From IMG/VR virus record IMGVR_UViG_637000265_000001: a stretch of 64,000 nt of DNA; one strand, 5' to 3'. Numbering within the stretch: position 1 is the first letter of the stretch; each line of letters begins with the position of its first letter. Made by a program: the position numbers. Of the stretch, positions 51,611 through 54,600 are shown piece after piece. This stretch comes from a virus (taxonomy: Duplodnaviria > Heunggongvirae > Uroviricota > Caudoviricetes).

Positions 51611-54600
51611 TAAGACATTCCCGCTCTTACACATCCCAGCCCTGAAAAAGGGCATCAAATTAAACCACACCTATGGTGTATAATGCCAGTCAGTTAAGCA
51701 ACTGACTGGCTCTTTTTCGGGGCTGTGGGGTATTTCCAGGGCCTCTCCTTTACCACTCTCGGGAAGGCCCTTCCCCTTCTCGTCGGTAATTTCACAAGTT
51801 GTCCCATACTTGCAAGATCGCGCATCAGCTCCGGTATACGTCCCGGTGAAGCGCCCTGCAATGTCATCAGCATTCTCATCACCATTCCGCATGATTCTGA
51901 GAAACTCAGTTGATTCGGCCAGTAACCTTTCAGATGTTCCGCCATTTTAATCATCTGATATCTCACCAGATTATAAGCCAGTAAGACACCCCACAGCTCT
52001 TGCTCCACAAGCTCCGGCTTTTTACTTCTCAGCGTCAGCCTGCTCAGTTGCATCGTCTGTTTTATCTCCCTGTATCCCAGTTCGATTTCCCAGCGATGAC
52101 TGTACAGATCCGCCATTTCTCCTCCGGGGAAGCGCATGGCGTCCGTCATCGACGTCAGCAGATGGCAGACTTTTCCTTTGCGCGTCACGGTCAGCAGGCG
52201 GGCTGTCACTTCATTTCCCAGTCCCGGCCACTTTTTTCGTGCCTGCGGGCTGGTTTTCAGCTTCACCAGATGATCGCCTTTACCCAGTTTTCTGAGCTCT
52301 TCATATTGCGCTCCCTTTCTGAGAGGTATCATCCAGTGGCGGTGTTCTCCCGCCAGGCTCCAGCCATTTAACAGTCCCAGTGAGTAATAACCTTTATCCA
52401 TTAACGTCAGAGTGTTATCGCCGGTTTGTTCTATAAGTTGCTCAGCAAGCTCATTTTCGCTGTTCTTCATCGTGCCGAAGGCTGCAGCCGTCAGCAGATG
52501 GCTGGTCAGTTCCATCTGGCAGACCATTTTGACCTGCGGGTAGAGCGCCGGGTTCCCGGCATGTGTCTGGCGGGGGAAGGCTGCATCGTTCTCTGGTGTA
52601 TCCGGTGTGCGCCAGAACACACCATCGATGGCCAGCAGGGTCAGGCCGCACCAGTGCGGATGCGGCGTGGCGTTATGCCAGAGCTGCGCTGTTTTCGTGA
52701 ACACGCGGCGGACAGCCTCACTTCCCAGGCGCTGGCGGGCCTGAATAACGGCACTGGGGGCAACGAAGGGGCGATTGCCCGGCAGCATGATGTCCAGGCG
52801 ATTCACAATCTGGTGAAGAGGTTCTTTACGCTCAAGCACCATGCCAACAATACACCAGACCATCATTTCGAGGGGAAGACGGCGCTTGCGTAGCGTTACA
52901 GTACCTGATTCGGCAAGGCAACGAGAGATGAGTTCGGGGGCGAGGTAATCCCCCAGAGAAGTCAGTGGGTTACGCAGAGAATCGTAACGGGATACCAGAT
53001 CAAGAGCCTGTCCAATGTGCATAAAAGAATCCGGAAACAAGTGAGCGTTTCCGGATTCTTACACAGCCACTGGATCGGTCAACTGATCCTTAACTGATCG
53101 GCATTACACCTATGGTGTATGCATTTATTTGCATACATTCAATCAATTGTTATCTAAGGAAATACTTACATATGCAACTTACAAGTACTCGCAAGAAAGC
53201 GAATGCAATTACAAGCAACATCCTGAATCGAATTGCTGTACGTGGTCAGCGAAAGGTTGCCGACGCGTTAGGGGTTAATGAATCGCAAATTTCGCGATGG
53301 AAAGACAGCTTCATCCCCAAAATGGGAATGCTTCTGGCTGTTCTTGAATGGGGTGTTGAAGACGAGGAGTTGGCGGAACTGGCTAAGCAAGTAGCCAGAA
53401 TGCTGACAAAAGAAAAAGCCCCGAAGAACGGCGAATTCTTCGAGGCCTAATGTAGAAAGACTGGATCAATCCACGGGAGTAATTATGACAAAACGTCGTA
53501 AGAAATACCAGGAAAAAGAAGAGATTCGACACCCTGATTCACCTGAGGGATTAGTGGTAGCCGCAGCAAATAACAGGGCGTTCGCAGAGCGCCTTGTTGG
53601 TGTTTACAGACTAGCCAAAGCAGGAGTGAAACATGGGCGTCGTTAAGTTAGCTGATTACAGGCATAACCCTGTACAACATCAGGAGGCATCCAGTATGGG
53701 GTATGTCTCTATACACCGCCAGTTTATGGACAGCAGGCTCTATAAGGACTCTCAGGCAGTACATCTTTGGCTTCACTTAATCCTCAAGGCTAATCACGAA
53801 TCTACTGTCGTCAATACGGATATCGGTCCGATAACTGTTGATCGCGGTCAGATGATAACTGGACGCCCGTCGCTGGTCAGAGAAACATTCATCCCCGACA
53901 ACAAAGTTCGGAGCTTATTACGGACTTTTGAGTCGAAAGGGATGCTTAATATTTGCTCGATGGGGAAGAAATTTAGCCTGTTTACAATCGTTAAATATGA
54001 CGATTTTCAGGCAAAAAATTGTCCAACGGTTGTCCAACGGTTGTCCATAAACAATAATATAAATAATATCTCTAATACTGACGTATTAGAGAGTGCCACA
54101 GCAGACAAAAAGTCTAACAAGAAAAAACCTTCCGTCAGCTGTCAGGATGTTGTCGATGCTTACCACGAAATCCTTCCTGAAGCGCCAAGAATCCGCGCAC
54201 TGAATGACAAGCGTAAAAACCAGATCCGAACGTTCTGGCGCAAAGCCGGAGTGATAACCCGCCAGCTTGACGGACATGGGTTCACGATGCAGGACTGGAG
54301 AAATTATTTGAGCTACGTAGGCGAAAATTGTCGATGGATGTTCGAAGAGCGTCCAAACCATCAACGCGGAACTGTCTGGCACAAAAAGGGATTTGATTTC
54401 CTGCTTAACGATAATACCTACCTGAAAGTTCGTGAGGGTGAACACGATGACCGATAATTTTTATGCGCCGCCCCATAGCATCGAGGCAGAGCAGGCGGTG
54501 ATTGGTGGATTGCTTCTGGATGATGACAGCAGTGAGCGCGTCCAGAAAGTTCTGGCGATGCTGAAGCCTGATTCATTTTACAGCCGACCACACAAAATCA

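Follow-up and report, generated by a model that had tools for sequence, protein, structure and literature searches.

A probable Sf6/L-type replication origin, halved by a 66-bp in-frame deletion, in a Shigella flexneri prophage

Introduction

Does a short run of tandem repeats inside an O-like replication gene mark the replication origin of a Shigella prophage, and if so, is that origin whole? The question arises from a 64,000-nucleotide stretch of viral DNA (Caudoviricetes; IMG/VR record IMGVR_UViG_637000265_000001), which we call the window and whose coordinates we use throughout. A sequence-only reading had noticed tandem repeats followed by an AT-rich tract at 54019 to 54080, within the coding sequence of the replication initiator, had likened them to a lambdoid origin and had taken them to identify the origin of the prophage. 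Shigella flexneri 5 str. 8401 (CP000266.1) encodes the exact initiator protein, and positions 43633 to 64000 of the window are 100% identical to that genome.

In phage lambda, the origin lies within the initiator gene O, in its inter-domain part, where iterons are followed by an AT-rich region (PMC3349717, PMC6022878, PMC7466680). The four lambda iterons are ~18-19 bp long, and each is an imperfect inverted repeat (PMC7466680). Phage Sf6 (AF547987) carries an annotated rep_origin at 28385-28480 in gene 43, labelled as putative, with lambda-origin-like repeats and similarity to phage HK620, and for phage L, six 11-bp TGTCCAACGGA repeats are regarded as the likely ori (PMC8022706). As a putative element, the Sf6/L-type origin is already known at the level of annotation; we found no experimental study of it in the literature.

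Results

Anatomy of the repeat locus

Tandem Repeats Finder delimited an array at 54019 to 54047 with a period of 11, 2.6 copies, 100% matches and the consensus TTGTCCAACGG. It reads TTGTCCAACGG, TTGTCCAACGG, TTGTCCA and then TAAAC, with TGTCCA cores at 54020, 54031 and 54042. Three arrays in the 64-kb window scored at least 50, and this was the sole perfect one; by our own calculation, 18 consecutive matches at a lag of 11 have a chance of ~4^-18 per position, which is negligible over 64 kb. Additional copies of the 11-mer were not enriched in the window (8 at no more than 2 mismatches vs. 17.8 expected), so that the signal lies in the tandem arrangement. The 33 nt that follow (54048-54080) have a GC content of 15%, and equally AT-rich sequence makes up 0.05% of the 33-nt windows in the 64 kb. 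The locus comprises the following features, the last three of them within the plus-strand open reading frame (ORF) listed first:

53633-54457, plus strand: replication initiator gene, 274 aa, of the Sf6 gp43 / HK75 'O' / phage L gp18 type (ORF; PHROG 345)
54019-54047, no strand: the iteron cluster that remains, its three TGTCCA(A) boxes spaced 11 bp apart (Tandem Repeats Finder; alignment to Sf6, HK75 and ST160)
54048-54068, no strand: AT-rich tract TAAACAATAATATAAATAATA, presumed DNA-unwinding element (low GC; kept in relatives and shared with HK022)
54069-54092, no strand: perfect palindrome, two 10-bp arms around a 4-nt loop (TCTCTAATAC-TGAC-GTATTAGAGA), next to the AT-rich tract

The earlier description of tandem repeats and then an AT-rich tract inside the initiator gene was thus accurate (array at 54019-54047, tract of 15% GC, ORF at 53633-54457). 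The AT-rich tract is conserved in relatives independently of codon position, and the palindrome was found too in Sf6, HK75, ST160 and HK022. An Rfam search over the whole window gave no match at the origin, and a promoter scan around it returned 5 sites vs. 4.8 expected. As a separate observation, the last box and its flank (54042-54052) recur in inverted orientation at 53722-53732, with a perfect match over 11 nt (GTTTATGGACA / TGTCCATAAAC). This copy, 309 nt upstream of 54042 and also in the initiator gene, codes for a conserved QFMDS motif and is probably coincidental, ~0.2 such pairs being expected by chance in the region.

The initiator matched the PHROG 345 family, 'replication initiation O-like', at 1.8e-79. 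Outside one 22-aa gap, 273 of its 274 residues are identical to Sf6 gp43, with one substitution, and the gene is 98.4-99.2% identical to 26 full-length phage matches, ECP1, HK75, HK106, mEp234, IME10 and Sf6 among them. Neither the window initiator nor Sf6 gp43 matched Phage_rep_O in a Pfam search with E up to 0.01, where the initiator gave only a sub-threshold match to DUF7376; neither protein matched any NCBIfam model, TIGR01610 included, and a PDB sequence search with the initiator returned no match. An AlphaFold2 (AF2) model of the initiator has a folded N-domain (residues 22-125), a disordered stretch (127-164) and a folded, helical C-domain (165-270). The best Foldseek matches of the N-domain were the CodY DNA-binding domain, TubR and MarR/ArsR, all of them generic winged-helix matches with E >0.01, and at these weak E-values the model suggests a resemblance to winged-helix DNA-binding domains. 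In the same model, the repeats code for residues ~129-139, within the disordered linker; because the repeats and the AT tract encode this disordered segment, the loss of 22 residues described below falls in the linker.

Comparison with known origins

The closest counterparts of the locus are in Sf6, HK620, HK75, mEp234 and IME10, which share with the window the box TGTCCAACGG, the 11-bp period, the AT-rich tract and the palindrome, as well as the initiator type and a DnaB-type helicase gene after it. The Salmonella phages L, ST64T, ST160 and SE1 carry the same element in gene 18 with slightly different inter-box bases. The window has the 11-bp-spaced TGTCCAA cores of this type, their location in the linker of a PHROG 345 gene, and the AT tract, palindrome and helicase gene downstream; what it lacks is the full set of six boxes in two clusters of three. 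In Sf6/L-type phages the two clusters are 66 bp apart, whereas the window keeps the AT-proximal cluster alone. That a normal array has six boxes in this arrangement had been missed in the sequence-only reading.

Like lambda, the window has its origin in the initiator gene, with iterons and then an AT-rich region. It differs in having 11-bp direct boxes without a conserved dyad instead of 18-19-bp dyads: the sole dyad in the array, CAAC-G-GTTG across adjacent boxes, uses inter-box bases that are variable among relatives. Its initiator is outside the O N-terminal family (no Phage_rep_O or TIGR01610 match), and where lambda uses a P-type loader to capture host DnaB, the window module has its own DnaB/DnaB_C helicase gene, as P22 does in gene 12. 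Judging from this layout, the origin would work like that of lambda without belonging to the lambda O family. The proposed likeness to a lambdoid ori therefore holds for the arrangement of iterons and AT-rich tract inside an initiator gene, but not for the initiator family, the iteron type or the loader.

P22 had been suggested, along with lambda, as the phage to compare. It does share the gene order c1, orf48, 18, 12, a DnaB-type helicase as the second replication gene, and an ori in the initiator gene (NC_002371, rep_origin 32840-32984). However, P22 gp18 matches TIGR01610, the lambda-O N-terminal family, at 2e-24, and the window initiator gave no such match in the same search; the two proteins are 25% identical, in the C-terminal part only; and the P22 repeats are ATCGGTAAAAC-like with a period of ~24 nt, unlike the 11-bp boxes of the window. 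We rejected P22 as a comparator on account of its different initiator family and different repeats. The right comparators, in place of P22 and lambda, are Sf6, HK620, L, HK75 and HK022.

Boxes as DNA sites

Tandem duplications are common in disordered, low-complexity protein linkers, and the array could in principle be a mere repeated peptide with no role as DNA. Each of the three boxes is translated in a frame of its own, TGT-CCA, GTC-CAA and TTG-TCC (coding for CP, VQ and LS), which makes them a DNA repeat and not a peptide repeat. We drew the box consensus from 70-77 distinct relatives, using an array search pattern that left boxes 2-4 free. Across 70 distinct two-cluster IMG/VR arrays, the TGTCCAA cores of boxes 2-4 had an entropy of ~0 at every codon position, third positions included, while the four inter-box bases varied (0.2-1.1 bits) and upstream third codon positions averaged 0.80 bits. 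A lack of conservation in related phages had been named as grounds for refuting the claim; conservation was instead strong, the cores being invariant in the 70-77 relatives.

A second box type leads in the same direction. The origin region in gene O (gp54) of HK022, found also in mEp235, CP-1639 and several Shiga toxin (Stx) phages, has the architecture of the window family, including a DnaB-type helicase. The HK022 array consists of 3+3 boxes with an 11-bp period and clusters 66 bp apart, followed by the same AT-rich tract and palindrome, and its initiator has an identical C-domain and a diverged N-domain (67% identity to the window type over the whole protein). Its box is TTACCAGCA instead of TTGTCCAACG, so the 11-bp and 66-bp register is kept with an unrelated box sequence. 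In IMG/VR, 111/111 TGTCCA arrays occurred with an Sf6-type N-domain and 109/109 TACCAG arrays with an HK022-type N-domain. The invariance of the cores in every frame, this pairing of box with N-domain, and the position of the array in the modelled linker support an origin function at the DNA level, and we consider a peptide-only repeat very improbable.

The 66-bp in-frame deletion

The initiator gene of the window is 825 nt long, compared with 891 nt in all 26 close phage records, a difference of 66 bp or 22 codons that preserves the frame. When aligned, Sf6, HK75 and ST160 each have two three-box clusters and a spacer, the cluster starts being 66 bp (6 x 11) apart; the window shows a clean 66-bp gap in the same alignment and one cluster only, the AT-proximal half of an array that normally has six boxes. 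A 30-bp repeat marks the junction:

54018-54047, no strand: deletion junction, a single copy of the 30-bp ATTGTCCAACGGTTGTCCAACGGTTGTCCA (alignment; gene lengths; extracted arrays)

In HK75 this 30-bp sequence is present twice, the copies being 66 bp apart, and recombination or slippage between them gives exactly the window sequence. The alignment places the crossover somewhere inside the junction copy. What was lost is the distal three-box cluster and the spacer; the AT-proximal boxes were kept together with the AT-rich tract and the palindrome, and the frame is intact. On this comparison, the window array is a deletion derivative of the Sf6/HK620/L-type origin and not a typical member.

Short-read assembly can collapse repeats like these, which would produce a falsely short array. 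However, the deletion allele is identical in the finished sequence CP000266.1, in two further chromosome-scale S. flexneri assemblies and in a 103-kb Joint Genome Institute (JGI) metagenome contig, the same 60-nt junction is also found in the complete E. coli genome NZ_CP054662.1, and the repeat is merely 30 bp long. We give an assembly artifact hardly any credence.

Variation in cluster number among relatives

Arrays extracted from IMG/VR were distributed as follows:

TGTCCA type (119 arrays): one cluster, 1 (the same Shigella prophage); two clusters, 115; three clusters, 1; seven boxes, 1; two boxes in a rearranged module, 1
HK022 type (93 arrays): one cluster, 3; two clusters, 87; three clusters, 2; odd array, 1

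The HK022 type thus shows the same one-, two- and three-cluster variation as the TGTCCA type. Of 5,426 complete E. coli genomes, ~145 had a close origin, one of which had a single cluster and at least three of which had three clusters. Initiator lengths fall into matching classes of 274/296/318 residues in E. coli, 277 vs. 299 in Salmonella and 274 vs. 296 in Klebsiella, and 66-bp gains and losses are recurrent in all three. One-cluster alleles account for ~1-3% of prophage arrays. About 95% of arrays retain two clusters, a pattern that extends to lineages with protein identity as low as 65% and to the HK022 type; because this majority persists despite recurrent 66-bp gains and losses, we read the two-unit array as being held by purifying selection. 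Expanded arrays were seen as well: both box types include arrays of three 66-bp units, with nine boxes and an initiator of 318 aa or 327 codons, and one array is 4+3, with a single extra 11-bp box. Loci with such expanded alleles are L136 (E. coli NZ_CP163451.1), L061, L151, L199 and L039.

The searches of phage records (~100, non-independent) contained no one-cluster allele of either box type. We rejected this absence as proof that such alleles do not function. We also rejected a link between one-cluster origins and broken helicase genes. The initial hints of such a link were a helicase in two pseudogene pieces in NZ_CP054662.1, a split or uncalled one in a Salmonella lineage (P0053), and locus L106, which is truncated and rearranged. 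Six other one-cluster lineages have intact helicases, and a broken helicase also occurs in 4/75 six-box loci, which weighs against the link. The helicase of NZ_CP054662.1 (L005 12443-14908, about 3527378-3529843) is in fact one uninterrupted 821-aa ORF that PGAP annotates as two pseudogene fragments; it carries a ~340-aa insertion with a LAGLIDADG domain and, judging from this, is probably intein-bearing and mis-annotated.

These distributions bear on whether a one-cluster array might be fully competent, with the number of 66-bp units (1, 2 or 3) being a neutral or nearly neutral slippage polymorphism. That alleles with one, two and three clusters occur across several genera and with either box type (initiator lengths of 274/296/318; 277 vs. 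299) fits the idea, as do the intact helicase genes beside most one-cluster alleles. In lambda, moreover, the two AT-proximal iterons and the AT-rich region suffice for unwinding and for replication in vitro, as summarized in PMC7466680 with reference to Dodson 1986 and Wickner & McKenney 1987. On the other side, the retention of two clusters in ~95% of arrays despite recurrent 66-bp changes argues for purifying selection, the phage-record searches were without a one-cluster allele, and Stx phages require their extra iterons for effective replication (PMC7466680), which shows that additional iterons can matter in vivo. We regard full competence of the short array as unlikely, though it is the alternative that we take most seriously.

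The replication operon and the prophage

The initiator gene is part of an early-right operon with these features:

53172-53450, plus strand: cII-type activator gene, upstream of the initiator gene (Pfam Phage_CII, 3.4e-42; gene call)
53416-53448, minus strand: terminator-like hairpin with a T-run at the cII 3' end, in the position of the oop terminator (14-pair stem)
53485-53646, plus strand: small conserved ORF, 53 aa, of the HK97 gp53 / P22 orf48 type (PHROG 1331, 1.4e-37; Sf6 gene 42)
54447-55883, plus strand: DnaB-type replicative helicase gene, 478 aa, intact (Pfam DnaB 6e-32 and DnaB_C 3e-60; PHROG 19; CP000266 gene call)
55912-55935, plus strand: terminator-like hairpin at the tR2 position, downstream of the helicase gene (Sf6 and HK75 have a terminator annotated at the equivalent place)

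The small ORF overlaps the start of the initiator gene. An alternative start of the helicase, an upstream GTG at 54432, would give a protein of 483 aa, and ninB lies downstream. P22 has its oop terminator annotated at a place equivalent to that of the hairpin at 53416-53448, and lambda has one at a comparable position; Rfam returned no family match for this hairpin.

Two further features lie at the head of the operon:

51640-51654, plus strand: GCCCTGAAAAAGGGC hairpin, 27 bp upstream of the insertion that follows
51682-53106, minus strand: insertion sequence (IS) IS4, 1,425 bp, between cro and cII (Pfam Nterm_IS4 and DDE_Tnp_1; empty-site comparison with L142)

Copies of a 13-bp target duplication, CACCTATGGTGTA, border the IS4 element at 51669-51681 and 53107-53119, and an uninterrupted empty site is present in an ENA contig (L142). 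IS4 separates pR from the replication genes and may make the expression of cII, the initiator and the helicase depend on N antitermination. The GCCCTGAAAAAGGGC hairpin has what we take to be the lambda nutR boxB sequence, and an N36-type N gene is present in the same prophage. Because the boxB hairpin is upstream of IS4, N-mediated read-through could still occur.

The early-left operon contains an IS1 copy. Two IS3-family copies in inverted orientation (20924-21761 and 62377-63214, 99.8% identical over 838 bp) bracket ~40 kb. At the right end of the window, positions 63642-64000 repeat the 3' end of the integrase gene (40786-41144) in inverted orientation at 98.6% identity, and this copy is truncated by the IS. 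The gene order is tail - gtrCBA - int - early genes - lysis - IS - (proA). A prophage that had simply integrated would not show this order, and the region therefore resembles rearranged or compound prophages. Two different virion modules adjoin, at 6281-19536 and 22374-37869. The first is P22/Sf6-like, with a 721-aa portal, scaffold, coat and ejection proteins, and with a large terminase gene at 6850-7914 that is N-terminally truncated (354 aa). The second combines a portal of the Phage_portal type with Mu-like tail genes, and gtr genes for O-antigen modification follow it at 37992-40524. The sole Rfam match in the window, an ALIL pseudoknot (120 bits) at 19943-20059, is the programmed-frameshift element of an IS3-family insertion sequence, whose transposase ORF lies at 19985-20875.

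In such a setting the deletion could have been selected. Small in-frame deletions within lambda O are cis-acting and ori-defective (PMC6022878), among them Rambach's laboratory deletions r95, r96 and r98, which remove 12-24 bp of the AT-rich tract or of iteron 4 (PMC6022878). Like these, the window deletion is a small in-frame loss of origin DNA from the initiator gene; it differs in being natural, in removing 66 bp, and in taking AT-distal boxes instead of the AT-rich tract or iteron 4. On this view it parallels r95, r96 and r98 in nature: where a prophage can neither excise nor finish a lytic cycle, an origin that fires after derepression kills the host (replicative killing), and cells whose origin the deletion had inactivated would have been favoured. 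The prophage is indeed trapped and damaged, by IS4, IS1 and IS3-family copies and by a rearranged int, and the deletion is common to the four long assemblies examined that carry this prophage (CP000266.1, the two further S. flexneri assemblies and the JGI contig). Yet the AT-proximal boxes and the AT-rich tract, the most critical parts in lambda, are retained, elsewhere the same allele sits in prophage modules that look intact, the supposed link with broken helicases failed, and fixation can be explained just as well by drift in a dead prophage. We consider selection for an inactive origin improbable. A broader version, in which the 66-bp unit acts as a copy-number 'dial' of origin strength (1-3 units, in both box types) and the one-unit allele of strain 8401 is a selected attenuation against replicative killing, seems to us just as doubtful.

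Discussion

In our judgement, the locus is quite probably a lambdoid prophage origin of the Sf6/HK620/L/HK75 type, situated in the linker-coding part of the initiator gene and represented here by a deletion allele that is most likely weakened. From the anatomy of the locus, the deletion, the conservation at the DNA level, the co-variation of box and N-domain and the domain layout, all read from sequence comparison and modelling, we infer how binding, unwinding and helicase recruitment would proceed and to what degree they may be impaired. The winged-helix-like N-domain of the initiator would bind the TGTCCAA boxes, whose 11-bp spacing sets one on each helical turn. The multimeric initiator-box complex so formed would strain and open the adjoining AT-rich tract, and the C-domain would recruit the DnaB-type helicase that the phage itself encodes in the next gene. 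In the window, recombination between the two perfect 30-bp direct repeats, or slippage during replication, removed exactly 66 bp.

Reduced function is suggested by the preference for two clusters, the need of Stx phages for extra iterons and the ori-defective nature of in-frame deletions in lambda O. We count the AT-proximal cluster, the AT tract and the palindrome, all kept in the window, toward retained function. Most likely, the deletion weakens rather than abolishes the origin, and does so in a prophage already disabled by IS insertions and rearrangements. The claim that the repeats identify the origin of the prophage is therefore sustained for the locus, which corresponds to the Sf6 rep_origin and the likely ori of phage L, but it does not necessarily extend to a working origin, since the array is halved.

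Several points tell against our explanation. Binding, unwinding and the replication start site are points that we infer for the Sf6/L-type origin as a whole. The three remaining boxes might be enough, given that two iterons suffice in lambda. Most independent one-cluster alleles adjoin intact helicase genes in normal-looking modules, and the zero in ~100 non-independent phage records is not significant, with ~2 one-cluster alleles expected, by our own estimate, at a prophage frequency of 1-3%. The co-variation of box and N-domain joins physically adjacent sequences, so that linkage contributes to it. Finally, one protein, P0073, from a single 1.6-kb ENA contig, combines an HK022-type N-domain with TGTCCA-type repeats coding for CPTVVQRLS; it is the only mismatch to the pairing, and could be either a chimera of assembly or a recombinant that arose naturally and has a mismatched origin. 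Separately, we observed the reverse mosaic in P0060, whose first ~55 residues are Sf6-like and are followed by an HK022-type domain and HK022-type repeats.

Little is at stake in the identification as such, as this is an annotated, putative origin type of a common P22-like and lambda-like phage family. What our analysis adds is a comparative case that the 11-bp boxes are DNA sites matched to the N-domain of the initiator, and the finding that the array varies by whole 66-bp units, two of which are strongly preferred. A mildly novel angle is confined to this variation in unit number and its possible tie to origin strength or to escape from replicative killing. The natural series of 1, 2 and 3 units is well suited to the study of how iteron number relates to origin strength, and the recognition of the Shigella prophage as the carrier of a half-origin bears on its amplification after induction.

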